This document shows positions 326 to 18,790 of a stretch of 20,000 nucleotides of DNA, in pieces (the stretch's first letter is position 1; each line of letters starts with the position of its first letter). The notes beneath the pieces are model-generated. The model searched no databases. It saw nothing but the letters and a program-made list of their open reading frames with translations, and was not told where the DNA came from. The stretch lies in the IMG/VR virus record IMGVR_UViG_3300042342_001499; one strand, 5' to 3'. The translations under genes and the position numbers were made by a program. Source of the DNA: an uncultured virus (IMG/VR IMGVR_UViG_3300042342_001499) (lineage: Duplodnaviria; Heunggongvirae; Uroviricota; Caudoviricetes).

Positions 326-379
326 TTAATTGGTTTACTTAGCTAATATAGAAATTTCTAATTGATATAAAAAATGATT
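326..379 (-). promoter_or_regulatory. early promoter/leader repeat, TTAG subtype
   Basis: Minus strand AATCATTTTT...TAGAAATTTCTATATTAGCTAAGTAAACCAATTAAA. Confidence 0.75.
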
Positions 380-410
380 CTAGGAAATTATAGAAAAAAA
401 TTAAGATGAT

Positions 411-434
411 AAAAAAAGCCCCGAAGGGCTTTTC
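411..434 (-). terminator. intrinsic terminator
   Basis: Minus strand AAAAGCCC-TTCG-GGGCTTTTTTT. Confidence 0.85.
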
Positions 435-451
435 TTGCTAACCAACCAAAC

Positions 452-700
452 TTAATCTACCCAAATCTCTTGGGTTTTCGAAACCGATCTCCATTCGCCA
501 ACTTCCAAATCGAAGTAAGCTGTTTGAGCATCGGATATTTTACCACCCTTAGGGTGTTTTAGAATAGGAACACGTTCAAGGTCCAATGTTCCTAATGCAA
601 TGCGTAATGATCCGCCAACCTTTCTGTAATAGAATTTGTACGAACCCGTTTTGAGACCTTTCTTAAGATCATCATGTGTAATTTTTTTAAAGTCTGCCAT
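452..700 (-). CDS. WYL_2 / Sm-like SH3 beta-barrel protein (DUF2693-like), paralog 1
   Basis: Motifs FYYRKVGGSLRIALGTL and YFDLEVGEWRS; start moved to MADFKK (700) because the upstream in-frame part overlaps the promoter repeat. Confidence 0.75.
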   Translation of the reverse strand: MADFKKITHDDLKKGLKTGSYKFYYRKVGGSLRIALGTLDLERVPILKHPKGGKISDAQTAYFDLEVGEWRSVSKTQEIWVD

Positions 701-715
701 GTTTTTTTTTATTAT

Positions 716-765
716 TTGATTAACTCTATAAATATAAGACAAATCAATTGATTAAAAAAATGATT
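716..765 (-). promoter_or_regulatory. early promoter repeat, variant
   Basis: AATCATTTTTTT upstream block and TATATTTA box at matching spacing. Confidence 0.6.
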
Positions 766-786
766 CCGTGGAATTTTCTAAAAAAA

Positions 787-916
787 TAGTCAGGACAGGA
801 TTCGAACCTGTATAATAACTTATGAGCAGGACTTTCACCGGGTTTTTCAAGGTTACTCCGCGTTATCTTTACTATTAACCTTTATTCATAGCGTCTACCA
901 ATTCCGCCACCTGACT
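787..916 (-). ncRNA. tRNA-like RNA (Leu-type D arm) with ~60-nt insertion in the anticodon arm
   Basis: Acceptor stem AGTCAGG/CCTGACT, D arm TGGCGGAATTGGTAGACGC, T arm ACAGG-TTCGAAT-CCTGT, stem TATGA/TCATA enclosing 60 nt instead of a 7-nt loop; no encoded CCA. Confidence 0.75.
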
Positions 917-1181
917 ATTTTATTAAAGTTATTACGATTACTGTTCCTGTTATGTATCCTGCACTCAGTGCCACTGCATTGAATATTCTCTCACTCCAAT
1001 TAGTAGCCTCGATCATGTATCCTAGGAATGGTAGACCAAGGAATGGACTAATTGCTGCAAAGAATATCATACCTGGTGCATTACCCTCAGACACAAATCT
1101 GATATAAAAAGTTGAGCATATCTCAATGACTAATGCTGATATGAAAATTATCAGGTATCTTATGTTATATTTAATTTTCAC
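915..1181 (-). CDS. small membrane protein, about 3 TM segments
   Basis: Three hydrophobic stretches; probable GTG start at 1181 overlapping the end of the upstream ORF (ORF track start 1211). Confidence 0.7.
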   Translation of the reverse strand: MKIKYNIRYLIIFISALVIEICSTFYIRFVSEGNAPGMIFFAAISPFLGLPFLGYMIEATNWSERIFNAVALSAGYITGTVIVITLIK

Positions 1182-1431
1182 AGATTTCTTTTTCTTCAAA
1201 ATGTTCAGCAACTGTTCTATTACCAGTTAACATTCGTAACTCATTTAAGAAGTTCTCAATATGATAAGCCATTAATTCTGCGTGGTCTGCATCGTTACCA
1301 GCTAATAATACAACCTTCATCGTCTCAGCAATGAAGTTTATCTGAGAGTCATTGTTTACTTCACCCAAATCAGCAAGATCACTAATATCTTTCATTACTT
1401 TTTTAAGTGCATTTAATTTGATTGGGTCCAT
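1171..1431 (-). CDS. hypothetical protein
   Basis: 86-aa ORF directly after promoter repeat 1441-1492. Confidence 0.8.
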   Translation of the reverse strand: MDPIKLNALKKVMKDISDLADLGEVNNDSQINFIAETMKVVLLAGNDADHAELMAYHIENFLNELRMLTGNRTVAEHFEEKEICEN

Positions 1432-1440
1432 TTCCTATGT

Positions 1441-1492
1441 TTTAATTGGTTAAGACAAATATATAGATTTTTCTACAATTAAAAAAATGATT
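1441..1492 (-). promoter_or_regulatory. early promoter/leader repeat, canonical
   Basis: Minus strand AATCATTTTTTTAATTGTAGAAAAATCTATATATTTGTCTTAACCAATTAAA, containing the Bacteroidota -7 box TAnnTTTG. Confidence 0.85.
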
Positions 1493-2052
1493 TATACAAA
1501 AGCTCCAAACCGAGCTAGCATACTAACTCCAGGTCGAATAGCCTCCGGAATATTAGTAGTAATCAATTTCCATTCTTCCTCACTCATTTTGTTTCTTAAA
1601 CTCGCTGCTGCTGACAAAAAAGAATGACCCTTCCGCATTTTATCAAATATTGCATCTAATGTTTTCACGGAGACTGGATTGGCGTCACACCATAACTCCC
1701 CGCCAACCTTGAGTGGTGCTCCCTCAAGTGAGGTGAGACGATTGTTGTAACAAAAGAAATACCCACCAACCTTCTGTGGTGCTCCCACAAGTGATGTGAG
1801 TGAATTGTAGCCACAATTGAAATCATTACCAACCTTCTGTGGTGCTCCCTCAAGTGAGGTGAGCTGATTGCCATAACAATAGAAACTCTCACTAACTATT
1901 CCGAACTTAACACCTTTAAAATCTTTAAGTCTCTGGTGGTAACAATCGAAACCCGCACAAACATCAACAAGTCCAGTCTTAGGGTTTAGAGTCCATCTGC
2001 CATTAGCACACTTATCGAGCCAATTGATTTGTTTTTTGGTTAGAGTGGTCAT
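1492..2052 (-). CDS. 22-aa leucine-rich-repeat protein, paralog 1 (3 full repeats)
   Basis: Repeats of NxLTSLxGAPxKVGxxFxC; N- and C-terminal caps shared with 12642..13328. Confidence 0.85.
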   Translation of the reverse strand: MTTLTKKQINWLDKCANGRWTLNPKTGLVDVCAGFDCYHQRLKDFKGVKFGIVSESFYCYGNQLTSLEGAPQKVGNDFNCGYNSLTSLVGAPQKVGGYFFCYNNRLTSLEGAPLKVGGELWCDANPVSVKTLDAIFDKMRKGHSFLSAAASLRNKMSEEEWKLITTNIPEAIRPGVSMLARFGAFV

Positions 2053-2060
2053 TAGTAGAT

Positions 2061-2112
2061 TTTAATTGGTTAAGACAAATATAGAAAATTCTACAGGAAG
2101 AAAAAAATGATT
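2061..2112 (-). promoter_or_regulatory. early promoter/leader repeat, canonical
   Basis: TATATTTGTCTTAACCAATTAAA plus AATCATTTTTTT block. Confidence 0.85.
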
Positions 2113-2120
2113 CCTGGAAA

Positions 2121-2420
2121 TTATCTTATGATAAACTTCTTTATATCTACGACGGTGCCTTCTGACTTAAGTAGCAATACATAAGTTCCTTTCTCGTTTG
2201 TGTTAATGTGTATAGATTTAGCACCATTAGAAGGAATATCAGTTACGTAATCCTCATCATTCTTTAGCACTGAGATAGTATCTGCGTTTACTTCCCAATT
2301 AATAGTACCGTAAGCATCACAATTAGAGTTCTTTTTTGTCTTACATGCAAGTAATATTGATAATAAGCAACAACAAGCTAGTATAATAATGAGTCTTGTG
2401 TTTAATGTTAGGTTTTTCAT
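2121..2420 (-). CDS. putative lipoprotein with T9SS-CTD-like C-terminus
   Basis: Basic N-terminus, hydrophobic stretch, lipobox-like LLA-C; ends KGTYVLLLKSEGTVVDIKKFIIR. Confidence 0.65.
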   Translation of the reverse strand: MKNLTLNTRLIIILACCCLLSILLACKTKKNSNCDAYGTINWEVNADTISVLKNDEDYVTDIPSNGAKSIHINTNEKGTYVLLLKSEGTVVDIKKFIIR

Positions 2421-2479
2421 ACTTAATTTTAATTGTGATTTATAGTGAAATCTCCGTGAATGTTTCGGGGGTACCTCAT

Positions 2480-2881
2480 TTAGAAGAAAGTAACACCATG
2501 TTTATTACGATTCATCATAGCATCTATAATTTCTTGAACTTTAGTGTATCTTCTTGTCTCAATTATAGTACGGGAATCAATTTTTAACTTGAGAGTACCG
2601 GAATTCTGTACAATAGTCCAGTATTCTTTCTCGTGTTCATCATCACAAAAGCCTAGTTTAGTTGAGAGTTCTATGGAGGAACCACAGAAGTTACACCATC
2701 TTAATTTAGCACCACTTTCTTTTGGTATATTTACTATAGGAAACTTAACTGTGTCTCTCTTAACCAACGGAGGAGCATCAGCACTTCCCTTCTTTCTTTC
2801 TCTGTATGCTTTGTCAGTACATTTCTTTGAACAATAAGTTCCTTTTCTTTCATGTTCAGTAGAACATATTGGGCATGTCAT
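2480..2881 (-). CDS. double zinc-finger protein
   Basis: CPIC...YCSKKC and CNFC...FCDDEH motifs. Confidence 0.7.
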   Translation of the reverse strand: MTCPICSTEHERKGTYCSKKCTDKAYRERKKGSADAPPLVKRDTVKFPIVNIPKESGAKLRWCNFCGSSIELSTKLGFCDDEHEKEYWTIVQNSGTLKLKIDSRTIIETRRYTKVQEIIDAMMNRNKHGVTFF

Positions 2882-2893
2882 AGTATTCTTTAT

Positions 2894-2925
2894 TTGTTAT
2901 AGAGCAAATATAATGAAAGATTCCT
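2894..2925 (-). promoter_or_regulatory. divergent early promoter copy
   Basis: TATATTTG box about 25 nt upstream of the 2881 ATG. Confidence 0.55.
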
Positions 2926-2935
2926 GGATTTAGCC

Positions 2936-2949
2936 CTGGGGTTCCTCAG
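2936..2949. repeat. palindromic element CTGRGG-NN-CCYCAG
   Basis: CTGGGGTTCCTCAG; other copies at 2466, 4903, 4948, 8587, 11776, 16884, 16951. Confidence 0.7.
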
Positions 2950-2984
2950 GAAATTTCTAGGGAACCTATGAAAAACCCTTGAAC

Positions 2985-3013
2985 AAAAGAAAAGCTCGAT
3001 AAATCGAGCTTTT
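2985..3013 (-). terminator. intrinsic terminator
   Basis: AAAAGCTCGA stem paired with TCGAGCTTTT, followed by a T-rich tail on the minus strand. Confidence 0.8.
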
Positions 3014-3080
3014 CGGGTTGGCAGATTGGAACTGAGATAATGGCAGTAATCTCAGAGCATTCAAGACGACAGCATCTTGA

Positions 3081-3293
3081 TTATACTTCCTCTAGTATAT
3101 AATAGTTTCGTGTGTTTTTACGTAAGCGAAGTACTTTACAATCTTTTCCTTCTTGATTAGTGTGTATTTTTCCTGTTTCTTCGAAAGTAACTGTTTCACC
3201 CTCTTTTAAACGTGTTATCCCTTTTTCTTCAAATTTCAAGCTAGCGTATAATTTTACGGTATGGCTTAAAGTAACTGTGAGTTTTCTGTTCAT
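3081..3293 (-). CDS. small basic hypothetical protein, resembles the C-terminal domain of 7774..8112
   Basis: VKLY...EGETVTFE...VLRLRKNTRNYY versus VRLF...AGTQLSFE...IYRVRRGKRNFY. Confidence 0.7.
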   Translation of the reverse strand: MNRKLTVTLSHTVKLYASLKFEEKGITRLKEGETVTFEETGKIHTNQEGKDCKVLRLRKNTRNYYILEEV

Positions 3294-3309
3294 TTTTTTA
3301 TTTTTTAAA

Positions 3310-3543: not shown

Positions 3544-3634
3544 ATCTTTAACGTTTATTAGTTTATTATATTACAAATTTACGGAGTATTTTCTATTAAA
3601 AAAAATCTTTTAGCGACTTTTTAACATTTAGTTG

Positions 3635-4097: not shown

Positions 4098-4181
4098 TTA
4101 TTTTGGTCTATTAATAGGCTTTGTGCCTTGTGCGATTTCATAATAATATGGTTTTGGTTTTGGTTTGTTCGTCTTACTCAT
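4098..4181 (-). CDS. 27-aa Pro/Lys-rich peptide MSKTNKPKPKPYYYEIAQGTKPINRPK
   Basis: First ATG after promoter repeat 4190-4239, at the spacing seen for other genes. Confidence 0.5.
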   Translation of the reverse strand: MSKTNKPKPKPYYYEIAQGTKPINRPK

Positions 4182-4189
4182 ATTTGTCC

Positions 4190-4239
4190 GTTTTGTATAA
4201 AGTAAATGTAGACGATTCTACTTGATATAAAAAATGATT
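4190..4239 (-). promoter_or_regulatory. early promoter repeat, variant
   Basis: AATCATTTTT block, TAGAATCGTCTA dyad, TACATTTA box. Confidence 0.6.
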
Positions 4240-4291
4240 TTATATAAAATTTATTCGAGGAAAAAAATGATTTCTTAGAAAAGTCTCGAAT

Positions 4292-4317
4292 AAAAAAAAG
4301 CCGAGTCTCCCCGGCTT
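4292..4317 (-). terminator. intrinsic terminator
   Basis: Minus strand AAGCCGGG-GAGA-CTCGGCTTTTTTTT. Confidence 0.85.
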
Positions 4318-4798: not shown

Positions 4799-4799
4799 T

Positions 4800-4852
4800 T
4801 GATTTATTTATGTCTCAAATATAATAACACATTACTAATTAAAAAAATGATT
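4800..4852 (-). promoter_or_regulatory. early promoter repeat
   Basis: AATCATTTTTTTAATT...TATATTTG. Confidence 0.7.
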
Positions 4853-5000: not shown

Positions 5001-5025
5001 AAAAAAAGGAGACCGAAGTCTCCTT
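5001..5025 (-). terminator. intrinsic terminator
   Basis: Minus strand AAGGAGAC-TTCG-GTCTCCTTTTTTT. Confidence 0.9.
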
Positions 5026-5043: not shown

Positions 5044-6537
5044 TTATTGAAATTCTGCTCGAACAACTTGATTGATAATTGACGATACCTCTTTCGGTAA
5101 AAGCTTCAAATCGTTAACCACTTTCGAATACGTGTAAAGCTCTTTGACGTGGTCTGCTTGAATACCAATTCCGACCGTGACAAATTCGTCTCTTCTTGCT
5201 CGTTCAAGGATTCGTTTAAGTTCTTCGTTATGCTCTTGACCTCCATAATTGTTTCCTGAAGGTTCACCGTCGGATAGAGAGATGAAGATTATTCTGTCGT
5301 CATTAGTCTCTCGTACCTTCTTGTGAATAGCTTCGATAACTGGTCCGTCGTAATTCTGACACCAATGTACGTTATGGTAAAATTTGATATTCTTTTCGTA
5401 ATCGGTGTCGTACGGAGAATAGAAAGTGAAAATCTCAGGAGTGTAATCTCCGCTATGTCCGTAGATGTATAATTTATCCGGAGGTAGAATTTGACTCATT
5501 GCGAGATAAAGCGTATTCATAATATGACGTTGAGACTGAACACGATTTCCGTGTCCCATGCTACCTGACATATCGGCTAATATACATACGGAGAAAGGCT
5601 TCGTATCTTGTTCCTCTACCCTCTGTTTGTATATCGATAGATTTCCTGCAGGGACCTCGGCTATTTTAGATGTGTCAAGTTTTCCGAGTTTAAGGTTCTT
5701 AACCTCATCGCTCTTAGGATCGAAATTGATATCCAATAGTTTGATTAAAAGTTCCGAATCTCTCTTCTCCTCCGCGTTGAATTGATAGCTAGCTCCTGAG
5801 TCTTTTTTATCGAAGGCAGTGAATTTAGGCTTTTCGGAGAATGCAGTTAAACTTCTCTCGGCTACACTCCATGGCTTACTCTCGTTAATCTCCCCCATTA
5901 AACCTTGTATCGACTTACCGCTTTTTCCTTTAGGAGCTTCTTTACCTTCGGCCGGACTTCCACTTTCGCTTTCTTTCTCGTCTTCGCCATCACCTTCACC
6001 ATCTCCTTGACCTTCACCATCACCTTCGCCTTCTTCTTCTTTCTCTCCCTGTGGTTGACCTTCGCCTTCTCCCTCACCTTCTTTCTTTCCTTTGCCTTCC
6101 TCTGGCTTAGGTTCTTGAATTTCCATTTCGATTGTACTTGATAAGATCGAATCCTTATAGTGTTCGAACATAGGCGCCATCTCAGGATAGGATGAGCAAA
6201 TCGTACTTAAGATAGCTAGGTTATTCAAAGACACTACCGAATACTTCTTAACGGTCGTTCCGAAGAAAGAAGGTCTTTCGATAACCTTTGAAGTGAATTT
6301 GTCAATTAGACCTTTCTCTTTCGCCTTAAGAATGTAAAGCTTAATAAGCTTCTCCGCTTGCCATGTTCCTAATTCCCTAGCTGCTTCTCCGCTTGCTTTA
6401 ATATCCAAATCGAAGTCGATTTTAATATACGGATAATCATTAAGAACTCGAGTAAATCCACCGAAGTGAGAATTTTCCCATCCTGAAGTTGATTTGTAAC
6501 CTCCGCCCCAGCCACCCCATTGTTTGTATCCTGCCAT
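5044..6537 (-). CDS. vWA (MIDAS) domain protein, CobT/NorD-like partner of the AAA+ ATPase
   Basis: MIDAS DMSGSM and later LSDGEP; Glu/Gly-rich linker; adjacent to a MoxR-type ATPase. Confidence 0.85.
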   Translation of the reverse strand: MAGYKQWGGWGGGYKSTSGWENSHFGGFTRVLNDYPYIKIDFDLDIKASGEAARELGTWQAEKLIKLYILKAKEKGLIDKFTSKVIERPSFFGTTVKKYSVVSLNNLAILSTICSSYPEMAPMFEHYKDSILSSTIEMEIQEPKPEEGKGKKEGEGEGEGQPQGEKEEEGEGDGEGQGDGEGDGEDEKESESGSPAEGKEAPKGKSGKSIQGLMGEINESKPWSVAERSLTAFSEKPKFTAFDKKDSGASYQFNAEEKRDSELLIKLLDINFDPKSDEVKNLKLGKLDTSKIAEVPAGNLSIYKQRVEEQDTKPFSVCILADMSGSMGHGNRVQSQRHIMNTLYLAMSQILPPDKLYIYGHSGDYTPEIFTFYSPYDTDYEKNIKFYHNVHWCQNYDGPVIEAIHKKVRETNDDRIIFISLSDGEPSGNNYGGQEHNEELKRILERARRDEFVTVGIGIQADHVKELYTYSKVVNDLKLLPKEVSSIINQVVRAEFQ

Positions 6538-6547
6538 ATCTCTTTTG

Positions 6548-6599
6548 TTTAATTGGTTAAGACAAATATATAGATTTTTCTACAATATAAAAAATGATT
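6548..6599 (-). promoter_or_regulatory. early promoter/leader repeat, canonical
   Basis: Nearly identical to 1441-1492. Confidence 0.85.
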
Positions 6600-6601: not shown

Positions 6602-6634
6602 AAAAAAAGGACTGACGAATTTAATCGCCAGTCC
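6602..6634 (-). terminator. intrinsic terminator between the ATPase and vWA genes
   Basis: Minus strand GGACTGGCGA...TCGTCAGTCC followed by T7. Confidence 0.75.
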
Positions 6635-6644: not shown

Positions 6645-7685
6645 CTACTTAGCAGATTCGTCTAAGATAGATTTGATACTTTTAAGACCTTCTTGACTTC
6701 CGAGACCTTTGCAGAGTACGACGAAACCGTCATAGATTGTAAAGCCGTTAGAAACCAATTTCGTAATTGTCTTAAGGTGACGAAGAGAAAGGTTGAACGA
6801 GATTTTGAACTCGTCATGCTCCTTATTGATTTGATTGAAGACGGAAACCAATTTTTTGATTTTATCTGCGGCCACTGTCGGAAACTCAGATTTTAGAGTT
6901 GACTCGATATCTTTTGTGTTAATCGAATCAACCTCAATTAGCATGAATCGGTCAAGTAATGCACGGTCTAACTTGTGCGTTCCTGTGTATTGACTACCCA
7001 TGTTAGCCGTCGAGAAGAACACGCAGTTAGGGTGTATTTTTACTGGTGTCGTATCGTGGAACGAATACTCCATCGGTAATTCTCTTCGGAAGTCGAGACA
7101 AGGAAATAACAGGTTGTTTGCCATCGCTCCAGCTCTGGAGATTTCGTCTAAGAGTACGATACCAGGTTTTTGAATAACCTCGGAGAAACGAGAACGTTTG
7201 AATTCCGATTTTGTTACTCCGTCTTCCACTGAGATAACGTGATTTCCCACAAGACCCATTATGGGATCGGTCATTGTACCCATGTCGAAGATAGTCAGTG
7301 GCAGGTCGAACACTTTTGCAAGATTCGCAACAACTTCTGTTTTGCCCGTTCCTGTTGCCCCGATAAGCATAGTACTAACTCCGAACTCGATATTGTGTTT
7401 AGCAATCTCAAATGTGCCCGCTTCCATTTTGAAGTACCCATTCAATGTGACCGTGGTACCAGCCAGTACAGCCAACTTAGGATCCGCTTTCAAACGAGGT
7501 GTATCGTTTATCGCCTCCACAGCTTCCGATAGTATCGTTTTTCTTCTCCTAAGAGATTCGGAGATCTTTGCCTTAGCTTCATCGCTCATAGGCTTTCTTA
7601 CCTTCGGGCTAGCTTCTGATGCCGCTGCCAAATCTAGGATTTCTAACGTTTCCGTTTTTACTTCTGCTTTTTTTGTTCTTGCCAT
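6645..7685 (-). CDS. MoxR/CobS/CbbQ-type AAA+ ATPase (AAA_5) with basic N-terminal extension
   Basis: Walker A GATGTGKT, Walker B VLLDEISR, sensor TAN, LDRALLDRF, SLRHL. Confidence 0.9.
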   Translation of the reverse strand: MARTKKAEVKTETLEILDLAAASEASPKVRKPMSDEAKAKISESLRRRKTILSEAVEAINDTPRLKADPKLAVLAGTTVTLNGYFKMEAGTFEIAKHNIEFGVSTMLIGATGTGKTEVVANLAKVFDLPLTIFDMGTMTDPIMGLVGNHVISVEDGVTKSEFKRSRFSEVIQKPGIVLLDEISRAGAMANNLLFPCLDFRRELPMEYSFHDTTPVKIHPNCVFFSTANMGSQYTGTHKLDRALLDRFMLIEVDSINTKDIESTLKSEFPTVAADKIKKLVSVFNQINKEHDEFKISFNLSLRHLKTITKLVSNGFTIYDGFVVLCKGLGSQEGLKSIKSILDESAK

Positions 7686-7696
7686 TTTTATATAGT

Positions 7697-7751
7697 TTTA
7701 ATTGGTTTACTTAGCTAATGTAGAATAATCTACTTGATAAAAAAAATGATT
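7697..7751 (-). promoter_or_regulatory. early promoter repeat, TTAG subtype
   Basis: TACATTAGCTAAGTAAACCAATTAAA. Confidence 0.75.
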
Positions 7752-8112: not shown

Positions 8113-8121
8113 TTTTATTTG

Positions 8122-8176
8122 TTTAATTGATTTACTTAGCTAAAGTAGAAATTTCTACTGAGATAAAAAAATGATT
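8122..8176 (-). promoter_or_regulatory. early promoter repeat, TTAG subtype
   Basis: TAGAAATTTCTACTTTAGCTAAGTAAATCAATTAAA. Confidence 0.75.
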
Positions 8177-8490: not shown

Positions 8491-8496
8491 ATAGAG

Positions 8497-8547
8497 TTAA
8501 TTGGTTAAGACAAATATATGGATTTTTCTACATTATAAAAAATGATT
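8497..8547 (-). promoter_or_regulatory. early promoter/leader repeat, canonical
   Basis: TATATTTGTCTTAACCAATTAA. Confidence 0.85.
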
Positions 8548-8631: not shown

Positions 8632-8662
8632 AAAAGAAAGGGCCCAGATTTCTCTGAGCCCC
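8632..8662 (-). terminator. intrinsic terminator
   Basis: Minus strand GGGCTCAGA-GAAA-TCTGGGCCC-TTTCTTTT. Confidence 0.8.
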
Positions 8663-9324: not shown

Positions 9325-9332
9325 TAGTGTGT

Positions 9333-9384
9333 TTTAATTGGTTAAGACAAATATAGAAAAATCTATTTGATTAAAAAAATGATT
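9333..9384 (-). promoter_or_regulatory. early promoter/leader repeat, canonical
   Basis: TATATTTGTCTTAACCAATTAAA. Confidence 0.85.
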
Positions 9385-9610: not shown

Positions 9611-9620
9611 AATTTCTTTT

Positions 9621-9669
9621 TTTTGGTTAAGACAAATATAGAAAATTCTATTTAATTAAAAAAATGATT
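9621..9669 (-). promoter_or_regulatory. early promoter/leader repeat, canonical
   Basis: TAGAATTTTCTATATTTGTCTTAACCAA; overlaps the stop codon of 9669..9893. Confidence 0.85.
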
Positions 9670-10232: not shown

Positions 10233-10235
10233 GTG

Positions 10236-10287
10236 AATTGGTTTACTTAGCTAATGTAGAAAATTCTATTTAATTAAAAAAATGATT
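10236..10287 (-). promoter_or_regulatory. early promoter repeat, TTAG subtype
   Basis: TAGAATTTTCTACATTAGCTAAGTAAACCAATT. Confidence 0.8.
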
Positions 10288-10310: not shown

Positions 10311-10784
10311 TTATTTTTTAAGAGATTCTAAAGCTTTGATTAAAGAATCTAATTGATCATTATCCAAATTCTTAAATGGTTCTATTAGGGATTTAGCATC
10401 GAATAATAATTTGTTATATTTAGATTCATCAAATCCATAAATTTCAAAATCATCAATGGAAAGATCTTCTAATGGTGTTTCAACATTTTCTTCAAAATCT
10501 CCAAGATCTATTCCTAAAGATTCTAATTCATCAGGAGTTAATTCTAAAGTTGTTCTCAATTCCCATTTATCAAATCCGCCATCCCCATCTATCCTTTCAA
10601 ATTCTTTAAAATTTCCCCAAGAACTTCCCCAATTGCCTTCAAATGTTTTTAAGATAGATGTCATGAAATTGCGATTTGGAGCAATGAATGCCACGATGTC
10701 ATTTCTAGTGTAATGACCCATCCCAGTTCTTGAAGATACATGATCATAAACATAAAGTGTTGGAACTCCTTTTGATTTTTTCAT
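10311..10784 (-). CDS. hypothetical protein, acidic C-terminal half
   Basis: 157-aa ORF with its own promoter repeat. Confidence 0.85.
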   Translation of the reverse strand: MKKSKGVPTLYVYDHVSSRTGMGHYTRNDIVAFIAPNRNFMTSILKTFEGNWGSSWGNFKEFERIDGDGGFDKWELRTTLELTPDELESLGIDLGDFEENVETPLEDLSIDDFEIYGFDESKYNKLLFDAKSLIEPFKNLDNDQLDSLIKALESLKK

Positions 10785-10795
10785 TTTTTATATGT

Positions 10796-10847
10796 TTTAA
10801 TTGGTTAGGACAAATATAGAAAATTCTATTTAATTAAAAAAATGATT
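10796..10847 (-). promoter_or_regulatory. early promoter/leader repeat, canonical
   Basis: TATATTTGTCCTAACCAATTAAA. Confidence 0.85.
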
Positions 10848-10849: not shown

Positions 10850-11272
10850 TTAAATAACACCAAATCGGCCTAACATATTAGCTCCTTTGATAATTTTGGT
10901 ATCTATGTGGGGTAGTAATAATGCCCAATCTTTTTTCGGTAATTCATTCTTTAAACTAGCTATTGCTATTTCGAGTTTTATTCCCTTTTTAATTTTTTCG
11001 AATATTAGCTCGGTTGCTTTAGGACTCACACAATTTGAGTAGTCTATTCTTATACCCATCTCATGTTTGTAAAAATCAGGTTTAGTCTTAGAGGGAGTAG
11101 GAATGATTCTTTTTCCTAATAAACTAGCCACCTTTGATATATGCCTGGTTGTGGTTCTTGAGAATTTACCTCTCTCATTAATAGAGTCGCCATCTATAGA
11201 AGCCACTTCGGTTTCATAACTAATGATCCGATCATCTACTACAAAAAGATTATTGCTCACTTTGAAAATCAT
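10850..11272 (-). CDS. hypothetical protein sharing the C-terminal module of the LRR proteins
   Basis: N-terminal ISYETEVA...SRTTTRH; C-terminal ...SLKNEL..DWALLLPHI...GANMLGRFGVI. Confidence 0.8.
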   Translation of the reverse strand: MIFKVSNNLFVVDDRIISYETEVASIDGDSINERGKFSRTTTRHISKVASLLGKRIIPTPSKTKPDFYKHEMGIRIDYSNCVSPKATELIFEKIKKGIKLEIAIASLKNELPKKDWALLLPHIDTKIIKGANMLGRFGVI

Positions 11273-11668: not shown

Positions 11669-11677
11669 AATGCTCTG

Positions 11678-11729
11678 TTTAATTGGTTATATCAAATATA
11701 TAGAATATTCCACAAAAATAAAAATGATT
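11678..11729 (-). promoter_or_regulatory. early promoter/leader repeat
   Basis: TATATTTGATATAACCAATTAAA. Confidence 0.8.
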
Positions 11730-11822: not shown

Positions 11823-11855
11823 AAAAAAGCCCGAGTATAAACTCAGGCTTTTTTT
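11823..11855. terminator. intrinsic terminator, possibly bidirectional
   Basis: A6-GCCCGAGT...ACTCAGGC-T7. Confidence 0.8.
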
Positions 11856-11870
11856 ATATAGTGGAAGTTG

Positions 11871-12565: not shown

Positions 12566-12586
12566 ATGATATTATAGTCGTTTTTA

Positions 12587-12642
12587 CTGGTTTTGTTTCT
12601 TAATACAAATATATGTAGATTTTTCTAATTAAAAAAATGATT
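12587..12642 (-). promoter_or_regulatory. early promoter repeat
   Basis: AATCATTTTTTTAATTAGAAAAATCTACATATATTTG. Confidence 0.75.
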
Positions 12643-13328
12643 TAATTAAAAAGTCCAAACCGACCTAACATACTAACTCCTGGTCGTATAGCCTCAGGAA
12701 TATGAGGAGCAATCAATTTCCATTCTTCCTCACTCATTTCGTTTCTTAAACTCGCTGCTGCTGACAAAAAAGAATCACCCTCTTTCATTTTATCAAATAT
12801 TGTCACTAATGTTTTCGCGGAGACTGGATTGACGTCACACCAGAACTTCCCTAAATGAACATTGAGTGTTGCTCCCTCAAGTGAGGCGAGACGATTTCTG
12901 TCACACCAGAAACCCCTGCCAACACTCTGTGGTGCTCCCACAAGTGAGATGAGCTGATTGTTGCTACAAGAGAACTCACTACCAACCTTGAGTGGTGCTC
13001 CCACAAGTGAGGTGAGGCGATTGCCGTCACAATGGAAAAGCCCTTTAACCTTATGTGGTGCTCCCACAAGTGAGGTGAGCTGATTGTTTGTACAAGAGAA
13101 ACTCCCTCTAACCTTCTGTGGTGCTCCCACAAGTGAGGCGAGTGAATTGTTGTCACACAAGAAATCCCCCGTAACCTTTCCGAACTTAACACCTTTAAAA
13201 TCTGAAAGTCCCTGAAATGAACAAATGAAATCCCCAAACACATCAACAAGTCCAGTCTGGAGGTTTAGAGTACATCCTTTAGCACATTTGTCGAGCCAAT
13301 TGATTTGTTCTTGGGTTAGAGAGGTCAT
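12642..13328 (-). CDS. 22-aa leucine-rich-repeat protein, paralog 2 (5 repeats)
   Basis: Repeats of NxLxSLVGAPxKVxxxFxC; 66-bp nucleotide periodicity. Confidence 0.85.
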   Translation of the reverse strand: MTSLTQEQINWLDKCAKGCTLNLQTGLVDVFGDFICSFQGLSDFKGVKFGKVTGDFLCDNNSLASLVGAPQKVRGSFSCTNNQLTSLVGAPHKVKGLFHCDGNRLTSLVGAPLKVGSEFSCSNNQLISLVGAPQSVGRGFWCDRNRLASLEGATLNVHLGKFWCDVNPVSAKTLVTIFDKMKEGDSFLSAAASLRNEMSEEEWKLIAPHIPEAIRPGVSMLGRFGLFN

Positions 13329-13336
13329 TAGAGGGT

Positions 13337-13388
13337 TTTAATTGGTTAACTCAAATATAGAAAAATCTACCCAATTAAAAAAATGATT
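13337..13388 (-). promoter_or_regulatory. early promoter/leader repeat, canonical
   Basis: TATATTTGAGTTAACCAATTAAA. Confidence 0.85.
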
Positions 13389-13393: not shown

Positions 13394-14350
13394 TTATCCC
13401 TTCTTCGGGATTCTAAACAGAGTGTCAAGTATTTCCATTCGTCTCACTAAATCCGAGTCATCTAAAGGAAGTACATCTGAAGGGGATTGTGTGTCCTCGT
13501 CTTCTCCTTCCAAATCGTATTTGACATCACCCGTTGCTGAAAGGTCGAATTGCATTTTTATATTAACCTCGCCTCTTCGGTTCTTAGTGAACATCACATA
13601 GCGAGTACCGTCCTTATCAAACCTAAGCTCCATCATACCTGTCGTATTATGCTTAAGCTTATTTGATCCGAGAAACACTCCCTCTTTTGTGACCTGTTGG
13701 ATACACAAGAAACTCGTCCACTTCTTAGAGTCATTATTCGACATGTTGTGGTGACGCATAAGATCGATTAACCATTTCTCCGTCTTCTTAGCTGTCATAC
13801 CGCTGGCTTCCGCAACCGTGTCCTGAACCTCGACAAATGAATCGATAAGTACCACATCGTAACCTCGGTTCAACATAGTCTCAATAATTGATTTGGGATT
13901 TTCGTCTATGTACTCGCCAAGGAATAGAATGTCGAGATCTCCAAACTTAGGATATCGTTGTACGTATCTGTAAAGATCCACTCGGTCCATTTCACCAGAT
14001 ATGAAAAGTACTGAAGCTCCGTTATTCTGTAAGTCGGCTAGAATATCCATCGACACTGTGCTCTTACCGACACCAGGGTCTCCAACCAACATAAAGTTGG
14101 TAGCCCTAGGAAAACCACCTTCGGAACTTAGAAGGGTGTCGATTGGCTTATGCGTCTTAAGGCACTTAAATAAATCGGGGTCAAATGAGAGTTCGCTCAT
14201 CTTCACACTCTCTGGAGAAATCCCTATTGCCTTAGCCGCTTCCGAGATCGTGTCGCCTTTAGCTAATCTCTTAGCTTCAAAACTCTTCCGAACACTCTCA
14301 GCGATTTTCGCTTTAGCTTCATCTGACATGGGTTTTCTTGGTGCATTCAT
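13394..14350 (-). CDS. RadA/Sms-like RecA-superfamily ATPase lacking the Zn finger and Lon-like domain
   Basis: Walker A GDPGVGKST, LFISGE, Walker B VLIDS, QVTKEG..GSNKLKH, KNRRG (RadA signature is KNRFG). Confidence 0.85.
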   Translation of the reverse strand: MNAPRKPMSDEAKAKIAESVRKSFEAKRLAKGDTISEAAKAIGISPESVKMSELSFDPDLFKCLKTHKPIDTLLSSEGGFPRATNFMLVGDPGVGKSTVSMDILADLQNNGASVLFISGEMDRVDLYRYVQRYPKFGDLDILFLGEYIDENPKSIIETMLNRGYDVVLIDSFVEVQDTVAEASGMTAKKTEKWLIDLMRHHNMSNNDSKKWTSFLCIQQVTKEGVFLGSNKLKHNTTGMMELRFDKDGTRYVMFTKNRRGEVNIKMQFDLSATGDVKYDLEGEDEDTQSPSDVLPLDDSDLVRRMEILDTLFRIPKKG

Positions 14351-14401
14351 TTTATGAGATTTGAGATAAAAATAATCAATCGATTCCGAAATAAAAAATG
14401 A

Positions 14402-15277
14402 TTATTCTTCGTTTACCGCAATGGTGTTTTTAATGCGCTCAGCAAATTCGTAATTCTCGTCTTGAACTGCCATCTGCTCCATAACCTCTAGAACCACTTT
14501 CGGAAATTCATCAAGTACGCCTTTATCATACACATAGCGTATTGAATTAATCTCGTAATCTTCTAACTCGTCAGCAGTCTCAGCTTCAATCTCATATAAA
14601 CGGTCAAGGAACCATTCAGGAGAGCCTTGAATATCTGCGGCTAATTCATGAGCTTCATTTGAACCACCCTCCGGTGTGTACTCTTCGACTAAATCTCCTG
14701 CTTGAAATGTGTACTCGCCGCAATTGTGACCAAAGTCCTCATCCGCATATCTCATACTAATAACTGCTTCCGGATACTTACGGCTTAAAGCCTCTATTAC
14801 TGGATAAGGTGTACTCCACGCGGTTTCAAATGCGATCTCGTTACTTCCTTCGTCTGACGACTGAGAGTAAGCGTTCCATTTAGTACCCCAGTTAGCATTA
14901 CTCCATGAGTACCAATCTTGGTGTCCGTATAATCTCACGTTATCCAAAGCCTTCTGAGCCTCTTCTAAATTAGCAAGCCCCTTATCACACATATGCGTGA
15001 TTAAATCATCCTCTGTCGCAAACTCAGTCGCCCAATTGAACTCCATTATCTTTCTGATATCGGAAGGGTCACCTGCACGCCACTTTAAAATAGCAATGCC
15101 ATTACTTGTGGAACTACCACTTGTGATATTTAATGTGTCCGGACGAGGTACGATTTTATTGAAATCAATAAACCTAGGCTCTCCGTCTTCATATTCACCA
15201 GCGATCTCTGATTTAATTCTAGCGACTAATTCTTCTGGTCCTGTGATTGTTAAAATGTTCGTTACGTGATTTGGCAT
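14402..15277 (-). CDS. YubB/DUF1281-like ferredoxin-fold protein with C-terminal UVR-like motif
   Basis: MPNHVTNILTITG, DFNKIVPRP, WYSWSNANWGTKWNA, FETAWSTP; ends MAVQDENYEFAERIKNTI. Confidence 0.8.
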   Translation of the reverse strand: MPNHVTNILTITGPEELVARIKSEIAGEYEDGEPRFIDFNKIVPRPDTLNITSGSSTSNGIAILKWRAGDPSDIRKIMEFNWATEFATEDDLITHMCDKGLANLEEAQKALDNVRLYGHQDWYSWSNANWGTKWNAYSQSSDEGSNEIAFETAWSTPYPVIEALSRKYPEAVISMRYADEDFGHNCGEYTFQAGDLVEEYTPEGGSNEAHELAADIQGSPEWFLDRLYEIEAETADELEDYEINSIRYVYDKGVLDEFPKVVLEVMEQMAVQDENYEFAERIKNTIAVNEE

Positions 15278-16229
15278 ATTCCTTTGTTTAATTGGTTAAG
15301 ACAAATATATAGAATTTTCTACAAAGAAAAAAATGATTCCTTAAATTTTTAATTCTTTTTCAAGCCACATAAATAAATGATTTAATTCATCCCTTCCTAT
15401 CCCATTAATAATCGGTATAACTTGTTTTCCTATTCTTGAAGCATTGAAGAATAACTTTCTGTAGGAGTCGTCACTTATAGAATACAATTGGGGAGTATAG
15501 AGATGAAACAGAAAACTTGGTTTTATTAATTCAGCAAGTCTTTCAGAAGTGATTACTTTACTTTCGACCAAAGAATAAGTATATGTAAATTCACCATTGT
15601 CATCTGTGGCTTCTTTAGAAAATTCAAATTTATTTTTTTTAATCTTCCTTAATTTCTTAATTCTATCTTTTCCGTAATCATCATTATATTCTCTTTCCCA
15701 TTCAGTTTCTTTTTCTAAAAGACCTTTGAGCTGCTTTTCGTCAACCACATCTTTGGAAACAATAATGAAATAATTAACCACTTCTTCGTCTATATCTCTA
15801 TAATCGTCCTCCTCTTTTCTGCATTCTTCAACCAAAGAGATAATTAGCTCCTTGTTTTCATCCTTTAAAGCTTGTAGCTTTACTTGGAGCTCTTTTTGGT
15901 CAGCCTTCTTACTTGATAGCTTTAGACTCTCAATAGCTTTAATAGCTTTAGTCTCTATATCGACGTCTAATATATCTGCCATTTCTAAAAGATTAATACC
16001 TAAAGAAACACAAAGATCATCTAATATAGCCATTGGTATAGAAGTAGGACTGGTCTTTAGCGAATCTAAAAGATCTTCATTTATAGAAATTTGATCTCTC
16101 TCGATGTTTGCTAAAGCAATTTTAGAAATCCCTTTTTTTAATGCTTTAATTTTTTCGTATTTTTCCATATTCCTTTGTTTAATTGGTTAACTCAAATATA
16201 TGGAATTTTCTACAAAGAAAAAAATGATT
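15275..16229. repeat. 64-bp direct repeat (15275-15338 and 16166-16229, 3 mismatches) flanking gene 15341..16168; each copy is promoter, leader and ATG
   Basis: CATATTCCTTTGTTTAATTGGTTAA(GA/CT)CAAATATAT(A/G)GAATTTTCTACAAAGAAAAAAATGATT. Confidence 0.9.
15341..16168 (-). CDS. hypothetical protein, possible N-terminal XRE-like HTH plus coiled coil
   Basis: IPMAILDDLCVSLGINLLEM resembles the C-terminal helices of XRE; K/E-rich central helix. Confidence 0.7.
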   Translation of the reverse strand: MEKYEKIKALKKGISKIALANIERDQISINEDLLDSLKTSPTSIPMAILDDLCVSLGINLLEMADILDVDIETKAIKAIESLKLSSKKADQKELQVKLQALKDENKELIISLVEECRKEEDDYRDIDEEVVNYFIIVSKDVVDEKQLKGLLEKETEWEREYNDDYGKDRIKKLRKIKKNKFEFSKEATDDNGEFTYTYSLVESKVITSERLAELIKPSFLFHLYTPQLYSISDDSYRKLFFNASRIGKQVIPIINGIGRDELNHLFMWLEKELKI

Positions 16230-16753
16230 TATGACATTTTTGTATCATAACGATTAATCAATTTCAGAATCGTCTCCTGGTGTTTGTACTCGTACACACT
16301 CATAAGGGCTAACCAATAGATATGTTCCACCTTGCCTAATACGATAACATCAGGTGTAGCGAAAGGTGTTCGATCTGCTGCCACTTGTTGTAGGCTTCGT
16401 AATTGACCGATACCAACTTGAAGTTTCATATGACCTTCGGGATCCACACCGTCTAAAATACGATCCAAAGCAATTCCTGTTTTTGATTCGACCTCTTCAA
16501 CATCCACTCCGAAGAATTCGCCAGATCCTAATTGACCTCCTAAATCCTGATACATCTTATTGTGAATCCGAGACATGTCCCCATACACATTCTGAACATC
16601 GTTCCAGAATAAATCGAACCTCTTCTCACTGCGGTCTAACATATCACCTGCACCATCGAGTATACGTGCCATACGCTTACTCTTATCATTACCACGTGCA
16701 AGGTCATCAACGATACCTCTTAAAGACGCAATTAAAATAGTTTTTGATTCCAT
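16229..16753 (-). CDS. hypothetical protein
   Basis: 174-aa ORF between promoter repeats. Confidence 0.85.
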   Translation of the reverse strand: MESKTILIASLRGIVDDLARGNDKSKRMARILDGAGDMLDRSEKRFDLFWNDVQNVYGDMSRIHNKMYQDLGGQLGSGEFFGVDVEEVESKTGIALDRILDGVDPEGHMKLQVGIGQLRSLQQVAADRTPFATPDVIVLGKVEHIYWLALMSVYEYKHQETILKLINRYDTKMS

Positions 16754-16763
16754 AGTTTCCCCT

Positions 16764-16810
16764 TTTGTTTAAACAAATATAAGAGATTATTCTAAATAAA
16801 AAAAATGATT
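16764..16810 (-). promoter_or_regulatory. early promoter repeat
   Basis: AATCATTTTTTTT...TATATTTG. Confidence 0.75.
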
Positions 16811-16872
16811 CATAGAAATTTCTATAAATTTATCGCGGAATCCGAGCGGCTCGCACTACGGAATCCGACTGC

Positions 16873-16964
16873 CGGATTACACCCTGGGGTTCCCCAAGAA
16901 TTCTGCGGATGCAACGCAGAGAAAATCCGGATGTGGCTGCGGATTACCCACGGGGGTTCCTCAG
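16873..16964. repeat. two CTGRGG-NN-CCYCAG-type palindromes, each preceded by CGGATTAC
   Basis: CTGGGGTTCCCCAA at 16884 and CGGGGGTTCCTCAG at 16951; GAATTCTGCGGATGC follows both the 16884 and 4948 copies. Confidence 0.65.
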
Positions 16965-17005
16965 TCGTCATCGATTCGGTTAGAAATTTCTAAATAAACC
17001 CCCAC

Positions 17006-17033
17006 AAAAAAACCGAGACGAATCTCGGTTTTT
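17006..17033. terminator. intrinsic terminator
   Basis: Minus strand AAAAACCGAGA-TTCG-TCTCGGTTTTTTT. Confidence 0.85.
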
Positions 17034-17088
17034 ACTAACCAATATAAACCTAAACAATATATAAGCGAAACCTGAGTGTGATTTCACA
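17006..17088 (-). ncRNA. candidate ~80-nt small RNA
   Basis: TATATTTG box at 17092-17099 and terminator at 17006-17033, with no ORF between them. Confidence 0.5.
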
Positions 17089-17144
17089 TTGCAAATATAA
17101 CACATTCTTTGCGGATAAAAAAATTTATCTCGGATAAATACAGT

Positions 17145-17576
17145 ATGCGGACAATTAAACTATACGAAAATTTCGGACAAGATCGCCTCGCCTTCTCTAG
17201 CAAGGTGGGTAGGGAAGACACACACCTCACTCTCTATGACGAACCAATGGATATGAGAAATGCATTGATCAATGGCGGAGTGGTTAATTGGGATATTGCT
17301 TTCTCCAAGAAATCATGGGGAATCGCACTAGGTGACACACCCACCACTATCACATCTATGAGATTTGATTACGAAGTGGAAGACGAAGACAATGAGGACG
17401 GAGATTACGTAGAGAAAGAGTGGGAAATCCCAGAAGGTGTCTTCTCTCCTGAGCAATTCACCACAGAGCTTAACAAGTTCCCTCTTTACCTTGAAGCTGT
17501 TGATATCAATATGAGACACACAATGGATCCTAAGTTCTGGAAGATCACTCTCTATTTAGGCGGAGACCAGCATTAA
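17145..17576 (+). CDS. acidic hypothetical protein starting MRTIKLYENF, possibly late or virion-associated
   Basis: Likely ATG at 17145 preceded by GATAAATA (17133-17140); the only complete plus-strand gene I accept. Confidence 0.8.
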   Translation: MRTIKLYENFGQDRLAFSSKVGREDTHLTLYDEPMDMRNALINGGVVNWDIAFSKKSWGIALGDTPTTITSMRFDYEVEDEDNEDGDYVEKEWEIPEGVFSPEQFTTELNKFPLYLEAVDINMRHTMDPKFWKITLYLGGDQH

Positions 17577-17650
17577 TTCTTAGAAATTTCTACAAACATT
17601 ACCCCTTCGCACACGTATCCGCGCGGGGTCCCCACCAGGTCGGTCCTCAC

Positions 17651-17678
17651 AAAAAACCCCAGATCGAAATCCGGGGTT
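17651..17678 (-). terminator. intrinsic terminator
   Basis: Minus strand AACCCCGGAT-TTCG-ATCTGGGGTTTTTT. Confidence 0.85.
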
Positions 17679-17688
17679 AATCAAATAG

Positions 17689-18327
17689 TTATTTACTCAT
17701 CTTAACCTCAGTGCCTTCAGACGTCACACTCACGGTGATGTTAACACCGAACTCTTTAACGATCTGAGCAAGCTGTGTCAATTCTATAGCGTTGCTAGAG
17801 TGGGAAGGCACACTCACATGTGTCTTTACCGATTCCACAATTGCTTCGATAGCTGGAGCAGAGATCGCATTCTCCATTGGCTTACGTACTCGAGTGATGC
17901 CAGTAGGAGTTACAAATCTTGTCTCCGGATCAACAATGAATCCCTCATCGATCAATTGACTCTTATGACAGTAGATAGCTGCAGCACTACGACCTAATAA
18001 ATCAACAGTCTCTTCCACTGTCATCTTACTAAGCACTGCTTCTCTTAACATCTCATCTTCAGCCTGCGTCCATCTTCGATTTGAATTAGGAGTTATTTTA
18101 TTCTGACTAGATTTACGTATCTTACGTCCATTCTTAGTGGTAGGGGTTTTAATAGTGCCATCTGGTAAGTAACGTGTACCTCTCGGTCTCACTTTGTTAC
18201 CTAAGATTCTTCGTAGAGTCTCAGGATTAATGTTATGTGTTAACGCCACTTCTTTCAAAGTTCTGTTACCAGTCACATAGTCTCTGGTTGCTGCAGTCTT
18301 AACTGCCTTGGTGATAATTCTCGCCAT
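17689..18327 (-). CDS. DNA-binding protein with N-terminal HTH and Myb/GcrA-like HTH
   Basis: TLKEVALTHNINPETLRRIL; RWTQAEDEMLREA...ETVDLLGRSAAAI. Confidence 0.75.
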   Translation of the reverse strand: MARIITKAVKTAATRDYVTGNRTLKEVALTHNINPETLRRILGNKVRPRGTRYLPDGTIKTPTTKNGRKIRKSSQNKITPNSNRRWTQAEDEMLREAVLSKMTVEETVDLLGRSAAAIYCHKSQLIDEGFIVDPETRFVTPTGITRVRKPMENAISAPAIEAIVESVKTHVSVPSHSSNAIELTQLAQIVKEFGVNITVSVTSEGTEVKMSK

Positions 18328-18348
18328 TGTTTATTTAGATTTAAAAAG

Positions 18349-18717
18349 TTACATTTCTTCAACAAAGAACATAGCCATAGTGATACGCTTACCATTAGCT
18401 CGTGCTATCTGACGAGCTGCAGATGTCATATCCTTAGCTTGCTCTCTGGTTATTGTTTGCGGTGTATCCGCATGTGAAACCCCAGTAGGGATTTTAACCT
18501 CTTTACCACTTGAGGTCTTCACCTTAGGTGATTTAGTCTTGAACTTGATCTTCTGTGGCTTAACCAATCCCATTTGCGATTTCTGCCATGTCACAGCAGC
18601 TGGTGTGCGTCCTAACTCAGTAGAGATCTCTTCAATAGACTTTCCCTCTTTACTCATCGTCTTTAAAGTCTTACGATCTGACTTGGTCCAAACTGTCCCT
18701 TTCTTATTTGTAATCAT
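18349..18717 (-). CDS. Myb/GcrA-like HTH protein
   Basis: WTKSDRKTLKTM...SIEEISTELGRTPAAVTWQKSQMGL, similar to the second domain of the neighbouring gene. Confidence 0.75.
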   Translation of the reverse strand: MITNKKGTVWTKSDRKTLKTMSKEGKSIEEISTELGRTPAAVTWQKSQMGLVKPQKIKFKTKSPKVKTSSGKEVKIPTGVSHADTPQTITREQAKDMTSAARQIARANGKRITMAMFFVEEM

Positions 18718-18738
18718 ATCTTCTTTTGTGAGTTTGTT

Positions 18739-18790
18739 TTTAATTTGTTATTGCAAATATAGAGACTTCTTATAAAAGAAAAAAAGGATT
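18739..18790 (-). promoter_or_regulatory. first (rightmost) early promoter copy
   Basis: AATCCTTTTTTT...TATATTTGCAATAACAAATTAAA. Confidence 0.7.

Follow-up and report, generated by a model that had tools for sequence, protein, structure and literature searches.

A predicted promoter-cassette array resembling the promoter-early stem-loop (PeSL) repeats of T4-type phages in a probable freshwater Bacteroidota jumbo phage

The promoter-early stem-loop (PeSL) of T4-type phages is an early-promoter repeat with a stem-loop, as described in the published accounts (PMC2839356, PMC4122927), to which all comparisons with PeSL below refer. Here we analyse a repeated element of ~60 nt found between positions 326 and 18,790 of a 20,000-nt stretch of DNA (the window) from an uncultured virus of the Caudoviricetes (IMG/VR IMGVR_UViG_3300042342_001499). 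A preliminary description, made from the letters of the window, had taken this element for both a promoter and a recombination or insertion site, and the whole for an integron-like expandable array. Our analysis points to a PeSL-like promoter-cassette array, not to integron-like capture: the repeat is probably the standard early promoter and 5′ leader of a T4-type jumbo phage, and its copies probably serve as substrates for homologous recombination. The array works like PeSL, without being a strict member of that class. Two other systems bear comparison. An integron has intI, attI and promoterless cassettes with a 3′ attC hairpin; lambdoid phages have morons and modular exchange at boundary sequences.

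A profile built from the window's own copies recovers, by construction, 21-22 copies in the window, all on the minus strand. In loci of five related contigs, which are independent of its source, the same profile gives 14-31 copies per 20 kb, each on the strand that carries the genes; in the other loci searched it gives few or none. At ≤ 3 mismatches, a 15-mer taken from the 3′ half of the repeat has 14 matches (2.21 ± 1.46 in shuffled sequence; 0/200 shuffles reach 14), and a regular expression on the 5′ part finds 25 sites, 23 of them intergenic and two chance matches inside LRR-like paralogues (at 1625 and 12775). With three degenerate copies (14403, ~2940 and ~3600) added to the 22 found by profile, the window total reaches ~25, the number first reported. 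Rfam has no match for the element. Every copy is co-oriented with the genes and precedes an ATG, as had been noted: the AATCA-to-ATG distance is 54-77 nt in 19/21 window copies, with the ATG ~2-25 nt past the end of the element. The contacts with upstream stop codons are likewise exact. At 1492, 9669, 12642 and 16229 the stop codon and AATCA share one base, the final A of the TAA; at 14402 (a weak copy) they share two, and a gap of 2 nt is left at 10850 and 15341. In a set of five genomes (the window and four relatives; 134 copies), 0/134 copies are entered by ≥ 3 nt of coding sequence and 30/134 stop codons fall within -2 to +2 of the element edge, a pile-up that we read as compaction against a functional boundary. 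An upstream stop codon within the motif is also a feature of PeSL. In the relatives' whole contigs the element is restricted to a single block of 35-45 kb on one strand. Forward/reverse pattern matches number 39/4 in G001, 36/0 in G002, 0/22 in G003 and 0/20 in G004 (reversed-pattern control, 0), and concentrate at ~85-120 kb, 144-190 kb, 0-45 kb and 104-130 kb respectively. This layout parallels PeSL, in which copies of an early promoter of host type stand upstream of most orphan genes within the hyperplastic region of a T4-type genome. The T4-type capsid gene Gp23 is present in 2/4 relatives' contigs.

The geometry of the element is that of a promoter. In the five genomes TAnnTTwR is present in 133/134 copies, and the AATCA block (AATCATTTTTTT) stands 29 nt upstream of the putative -7 box (TAyATTwG) in 129/133, a rigid spacing of two conserved blocks such as contact with RNA polymerase demands; PeSL, too, is a host-type early promoter repeated at fixed spacing. 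Downstream of the box follows a conserved leader, AACCAATTAAA, and the spacer between the boxes is a 12-bp palindrome-like sequence, TAGAAnnTTCTA, which parallels the dyad between the two promoter boxes of PeSL. Type A copies read TATATTTG-TCTT-AACCAATTAAA and type B copies (at 379, 7751, 8176 and 10287) TACATTAGCTAAGTA-AACCAATTAAA. The flavobacterial sigma-A -7 box, TAnnTTTG, sits at -12 to -5 (PMC9723704), and the box of the type A copies is identical to it. If the phage box occupies the same position, AATCATTTTTTT would lie at about -41 to -30, covering the -33 region, the TAGAAnnTTCTA spacer would span -24 to -13, TAyATTwG would act as the -7 box and transcription would begin at the first A of AACCAATTAAA, so that every early mRNA would carry a common short leader free of a Shine-Dalgarno (SD) site; in some relatives the start would be the A of the ATG itself (leaderless). 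The view of the element as a promoter, which had been proposed before, has good support in this sequence geometry. The -7 box, its distance to the predicted start, the short A-rich leader and a minority of predicted leaderless mRNAs recall Bacteroidota sigma-A promoters and SD-less translation initiation (PMC9723704, PMC6847099). The fixed-distance AATCATTTTTTT, the spacer palindrome and the leader AACCAATTAAA are phage-specific additions, and type B copies differ further by their TAnnTTAG box. The promoter grammar also separates the element from PeSL, which is of the sigma-70 -35/-10 type and not of the Bacteroidota -33/-7 type.

Two observations bear on the leader. The AATCA-to-ATG distances of the 134 copies fall into two classes: seven copies have 41-42 nt, which puts the ATG at the predicted +1, all others have 52 nt or more, and intermediate values are absent. 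This bimodality gives internal support for the predicted start. The 41-42-nt class lies mostly in related contig A (L003/L023), where leaderless variants occur at L003 7539, 8425, 9566 and 19589, for example, with 4 nt between -7 box and ATG (TACATTTACAATATG). Secondly, at three independent junctions a stop codon is fused straight to the leader, the promoter part being gone and the break falling at about the predicted start: before W08 (in L031, L034, L036 and L053), before W15 (L030 and L037) and before W17 (L039). Such leader-only junctions suggest that the leader is a translation signal independent of the promoter, and its retention for translation in an SD-poor host is the simplest reading. 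Translation initiation without SD sites is described for Bacteroidota (PMC6847099). A conserved transcribed leader that replaces the SD site, with a leaderless variant, distinguishes the present array from PeSL.

Cassette gain, loss and exchange were followed in 15 close relatives, loci at 75-97% nucleotide identity to the window obtained from a metagenome scan, by chained alignment and reading of the junctions. There were 14 distinct cassette-level events (gain, loss or replacement). W07 is missing in nine loci (event 1), and in L051 its slot holds another gene, of 1172 nt (event 2). The leader of W08 is joined to unrelated upstream DNA in L031, L034, L036 and L053 (event 3), and in five loci a promoter-less gene of 259 nt lies between W08 and W09 (event 4). 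Five loci lack the cassette formed by W10 and its element copy c13388, with a terminator in place (event 5). Inserts were found in L033 at c12642 (866 nt, event 6), at c10847 (706 nt, event 9) and just upstream of the W17 ATG (1083 nt, event 10), and in L039 at c6599 (1629 nt, with 83 nt duplicated, event 13). W14 is missing from three loci (event 7), W16 from L030 (event 8), and W14-16 (event 11) and W18-20 (event 12) from L039, the last loss leaving one complete element in place. In L043, 426 nt stand in place of W14-20 (event 14). When the 23 breakpoint ends are placed on the window, none falls inside a gene (chance ~1e-13), and 16/23 lie at element-bearing junctions, one of them a weak copy; no enrichment per junction accompanies these figures.

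In 5/14 events (1, 6, 8, 9 and 13) 39-97 nt of the element are duplicated or overlapping, the footprint expected of a crossover between repeats, and among these five a single element in one genome aligns to both flanking elements in the other. PeSL indels, which are bounded by the motif, are similar: a motif-gene-motif arrangement in one genome is matched by a single chimeric motif in its close relative, and homologous recombination is proposed as their driver. The two elements around W07 agree at 59/62 positions from AATCA to ATG, which ranks them among the 0.4% most similar window pairs. The flanks of W16 share 49 nt without a mismatch; part of this stretch is the 3′ end (18 nt) of the upstream gene, which survives as a non-coding relic behind W16. 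A W07 homologue, 28% identical, fills the L033 insert at c12642, which is a different slot. Elements on the two sides of ten lineage-specific inserts resemble each other more than randomly drawn pairs do (Fisher combined p = 0.007; 0.06 when W07 is left out), and in each of the five genomes the identical in-register runs of neighbouring copies are longer than those of random pairs (p = 0.005 in the window and 0.019, 0.0004, 0.021 and 0.039 in the others), 17/129 adjacent pairs exceeding the 95th percentile of run length. The earlier statement that neighbours resemble each other most holds for run length and for c16229/c15338, which are reciprocal best matches (95%). It fails for global identity in the window (p = 0.25; for 3/22 copies the best match is a neighbour, against ~2 expected), and the other pairs named (8176/7751, 10847/10287 and 9669/9384) rank only second to third.

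These data are consistent with promoter copies that recombine by homology, and we consider the dozens of copies, with 30-60 nt in common, to be substrates for homologous recombination during replication or co-infection. Several results weigh against this reading, and some of them favour an alternative that we regard as unlikely, namely that the element is a promoter only, the flux arising from illegitimate recombination and selection for intact genes and the likeness of copies from tandem duplication and local gene conversion. Seven of the 23 breakpoints lie at element-less junctions (those of the W14 loss, the W18-20 loss and the replacement in L043, together with the left border of the W14-16 loss in L039), and per junction the element-less borders of the close relatives break as often as the element-bearing ones (4/6 versus 8/16, p = 0.65). 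Events 7, 12 and 14 are incompatible with an element-element crossover; the W14 loss, which faces a 16-nt leader relic, and the W18-20 loss, which faces a complete element, do not fit a simple one. Intergenic DNA is almost wholly element, so that a breakpoint that falls in the element could equally owe its position to selection for intact genes, and the stop codons piled up at the element edge fit compaction against a functional boundary. Among the insert-flanking pairs 7/10 are unremarkable (percentile ≥ 0.15); global identity of neighbours is raised in contigs A and B only, not in the window, C or D; and 14/27 searched loci give no profile match, including two with a 79%-identical AAA gene. 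Against a promoter without a part in the flux stand the duplicated or overlapping element in the five events above, which a repeat crossover predicts, the 18-nt relic fused to the element downstream of W16, and the likeness of insert-flanking elements. Since genes are also gained and lost at element-less borders, the element facilitates the flux and is not required for it; we conclude that it assists the homology-driven share. The proposal of a recombination site is thus retained for homologous recombination between repeats and dropped for a dedicated site.

Distant relatives (50-56% protein identity) show a weak excess of broken element-bearing junctions (odds ratios 1.4-13.7; 4/12 comparisons with p < 0.05), from comparisons that are non-independent and based on crude calls of open reading frames. 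The window's backbone is collinear with contig A, many single genes differ, and contigs B and C carry the AAA-VWA block at another place. Orthologous promoters are clearly above background only between B and C (93% versus 67.5%); A-B (p = 0.015) and A-C (p = 0.011) show a smaller excess, and the other seven pairs (~50-56% protein identity) are not significant, a signal so weak that a tree of copies would be uninformative at this distance. An apparent simple insertion at W26 relative to contig A was dropped as a gene-calling miss. Contig joints that might have represented circles, as in the excised mini-circles with one motif that characterise PeSL, were also rejected (among them 1494>15275, 6606>1456 and 8140>6583): their short sides (35-39 nt) lie inside repeats, and they probably stem from further copies outside the window. 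All joints were taken from assembled contigs of sequencing runs, which break at repeats. One low-depth joint, 15341>16883 (+9 nt), seen in two runs, may represent a relative without W06-W07.

A dedicated capture system, integron-like or nuclease-driven, in which the AATCA edge or the TAGAAnnTTCTA palindrome is the site for an unseen recombinase or endonuclease, appears extremely unlikely. With an integron the array has in common a row of mostly single-gene units in one orientation whose content varies between relatives. In favour of a capture system, the boundaries of several independent events coincide, lying either within offsets 30-41 of the element or precisely on its AATCA edge, perfect palindromes occur outside promoters (at 16813, 16981 and 17581) and a RecA/RadA-like ATPase is encoded in the array; offsets 30-41, however, coincide with the end of the conserved block plus variable positions. 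The Phage_integrase domain of tyrosine recombinases (PF00589) was found in none of 33 window proteins and in none of the four relatives' contigs (0/4; 130-248 kb, 47-85% complete), in a search that recovered it in 14/14 control genomes, so the remark that no integrase is visible stands and extends to the relatives. Unlike an integron cassette, each unit here has its own promoter, the repeat lying 5′ of the gene. Unlike attC, the repeat keeps a fixed distance to -7 box and ATG and has no stable fold, and the breakpoints fall at no single fixed site and at element-less junctions too. On these grounds the integron-like array was abandoned; the element does not define such a system. Morons resemble the present units as self-contained promoter-gene(-terminator) modules between genes with breakpoints at gene borders, the difference being that one promoter family is here reused dozens of times in a single block.

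The absence of a stable fold also sets the array apart from PeSL. Nine copies have minimum free energies of -2.4 to -9.8 kcal/mol, with z of -1.57 to +0.88 against shuffles, so the defining stable stem-loop of PeSL is wanting; in its place the dyad consists of an A+T-rich palindrome of 4-5 bp. Stable folds are seen in terminators of the window that are separate from the element (z -5.5 and -4.8), and terminator-like hairpins precede ~8/22 copies, about one-third. The palindrome TAGANNNNTCTA occurs 17 times (0.67 expected) and may be a protein-binding operator. Stand-alone perfect palindromes (TAGAAATTTCTA) also lie outside promoter copies at 16981-16992 and 17581-17592, where they flank an opposite-strand gene (17109-17576). 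We have entertained, as a very improbable extension, that TAGAAATTTCTA is bound by a dimeric protein of the phage with two activities, the silencing of the early promoters and the nicking or pairing of DNA at the site, every promoter copy becoming a stimulated recombination hotspot. If true, a dedicated cassette-shuffling device would take the place of passive homology between promoters. The flanked gene (plus strand, 155 aa) stands alone inside the minus-strand array, is 33-41% conserved in five related loci and is bracketed by two terminators.

We suggest host sigma-A as the simplest reader of the element. The consensus of the Bacteroidota -33 box is TTTG. Against this consensus the -33 position of the element is a T-run preceded by AATCA, and the type B box, TAnnTTAG, is one base off the -7 consensus; moreover, reading by host RNA polymerase, early timing and the start site are all deduced from sequence. 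Three of the four relatives' contigs encode one to three sigma-70-family proteins with region 4 (285-299 aa; G001 112720-112878, 149383-149538 and 173186-173347; G002 217272-217430), and one G001 gene, at 112.7 kb, falls inside the promoter array. In L021 almost all copies have AAACA for AATCA (AAACATTTTTTT…TTAGCGTCATAACC versus AATCA…TTAGCTAAGTAAACC elsewhere), a concerted change over ~20 copies that may reflect either co-evolution with a trans-acting factor or homogenization among copies. These points weigh against host sigma-A as the only reader and make a phage-encoded one possible. In its full form this alternative holds that a phage sigma factor or appropriator reads the element instead of host sigma-A alone, that the promoters form a delayed-early or middle class and that the genome-specific spelling is the product of co-evolution, the AAACA and GCGTCAT states in almost all L021 copies being unseen in the other genomes. 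We rate it as rather improbable. A T4-type phage packages no RNA polymerase. It therefore needs a promoter class read by the host, and the element is the only abundant clustered class seen; furthermore, the type A -7 box is the host sigma-A consensus, and a sigma gene within the array is compatible with sigma being an early product itself. Cultured Flavobacterium jumbo phages with two sigma variants, as reported in one study (PMC13573597), would fit a phage-encoded reader.

Returning to the early promoter read by the host, almost every gene or unit of 2-3 genes in the hyperplastic block of 35-45 kb would have its own copy. Recombination between copies would insert, delete, duplicate and swap promoter-plus-gene units and leave duplicated or chimeric elements behind. 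It would presumably be performed by recombination enzymes, of which the RecA/RadA-like ATPase encoded within the array (13394-14350, minus strand) is a possible candidate.

The copies and their cassettes, all on the minus strand, are as follows from the right. The first of the array, c18790 (18718..18790), a variant with AATCC…TATATTTG, precedes an HTH gene (18349-18717). c16810 (16754..16810) precedes W06 (16229-16753) and has an extra perfect palindrome just upstream (16813-16824). c16229 (16169..16229), whose first base is overlapped by the W06 TAA, precedes W07 (15341..16168), a lineage-specific cassette encoding a 275-aa orphan; the matching downstream copy, c15338 (15278..15338), precedes W08 and is reduced to its leader in the four relatives of event 3. 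The weak copy c14403 (14351..14403), with the promoter-less 259-nt gene of event 4 at its 5′ edge in five relatives, precedes the RecA/RadA-like gene, and c13388 (13329..13388) precedes the LRR-like W10. c12642 (12566..12642), the first 39 nt of which are duplicated at the L033 insert, precedes a WYL_2 gene. c11729 (11669..11729) precedes a three-gene unit (11447-11668/11275-11442/10850-11272) and follows a terminator at ~11823-11860. W16 (10311..10784), a 157-aa orphan cassette preceded by c10847 (10785..10847), is missing from L030, L039 and contig B, where its flanking genes are adjacent to each other. Then come c10287 (10233..10287; type B, TACATTAGCTAAGTAAACC), c9669 (9611..9669), c9384 (9325..9384), c8547 (8491..8547, with a terminator at 8639-8662 before it) and two further type B copies, c8176 (8113..8176) and c7751 (7686..7751), the latter before the gene of a MoxR-type AAA ATPase (6645-7685). 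c6599 (6538..6599), directly preceded by a terminator (6609-6634), serves the gene of a CobT/VWA protein (5044-6537). Terminators also precede c4852 (4799..4852; 5006-5025) and a tandem pair of a partial c4272 and a fuller c4239 (4142..4272; 4298-4317). At the left, c2112 (2053..2112) precedes an LRR-like paralogue (1492-2052) whose TAA overlaps the first base of c1492 (1432..1492); c765 (701..765), with a degenerate 3′ half, precedes the second WYL_2 gene (ATG at 700), and the type B copy c379 (315..379) precedes a gene that runs off the left end of the window. The remaining recognisable products of the window are the DUF1281-type protein W08 (14402-15277, minus strand) and a second HTH protein (17689-18327).

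Nearly all genes of the window are on the minus strand, its G+C content is 30-43% and small orphans dominate it: 24/33 proteins have no Pfam match at E ≤ 0.01, and 22/35 no PHROG match at E ≤ 0.001. Among GenBank phages neither the whole window (megablast) nor the AAA-VWA genes (blastn) have a match, and tblastn gives distant matches only (≤ 40%). An exact 21-mer scan of viral contigs found two loci only. Relatives in IMG/VR, at ~74% protein identity, are on contigs of 130-248 kb, and Gp23 scores above the Pfam cut-off in two of the four examined; the T4-type assignment is drawn from these contigs. Twenty metagenome runs from lake or fresh water, dated 2018-2024, contain the window DNA or a nearly identical version of it, and lake metagenomes of those years have this phage together with many cassette variants; one contig of the scan, 99.4% identical, has zero cassette differences over 15.5 kb. 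The source is probably an uncultured freshwater T4-type jumbo phage with a Bacteroidota host.

Several further features were recorded. The LRR-like paralogues (1492-2052, 12642-13328 and 10850-11272, minus strand) have 63-nt repeats and a common C-terminal tail, MLGRFG; repeat number differs between close relatives (L033), and L034 and L051 have additional paralogues in variable slots. An N-terminal segment (RKPMSDEAKAKI; 35% identity over 107 aa) is common to the AAA ATPase and the RecA/RadA-like ATPase, which suggests exchange of a 5′ gene module. A tRNA-like gene at 787-916 (minus strand) scores 38.1 bits with the Rfam tRNA model, above the gathering score, with normal acceptor, D and T arms and 62 nt in place of the model's 11 around the anticodon; ARAGORN called no tRNA there or elsewhere in the window, seven related loci have none, and in the runs the tRNAs of other organisms align with its two ends only. 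The 1.1 kb upstream of the first element (18791-19910) contains no conserved open reading frame and no Rfam match. CACA, GAGA and words resembling GGAAATTCC abound in it, and its nucleotide sequence is conserved in relatives (L023, 72% over 320 nt; L002, 66% over 683 nt); a role as control region or origin is possible. At the right end (19911-20000, plus strand) a divergently transcribed gene begins, whose family forms ~8 tandem paralogues in relatives (L023 1200-4800), each with internal repeats of 60 nt (20 aa).

Among the papers listed on Bacteroidota -7 promoters and on freshwater and Flavobacterium jumbo phages we found no description of such arrays in Bacteroidota phages. The present array would carry promoter-cassette shuffling of the PeSL type beyond the T4-like phages that infect Proteobacteria, into T4-type jumbo phages whose hosts are freshwater Bacteroidota, and the extension would bring with it a different promoter grammar and a common SD-less leader.

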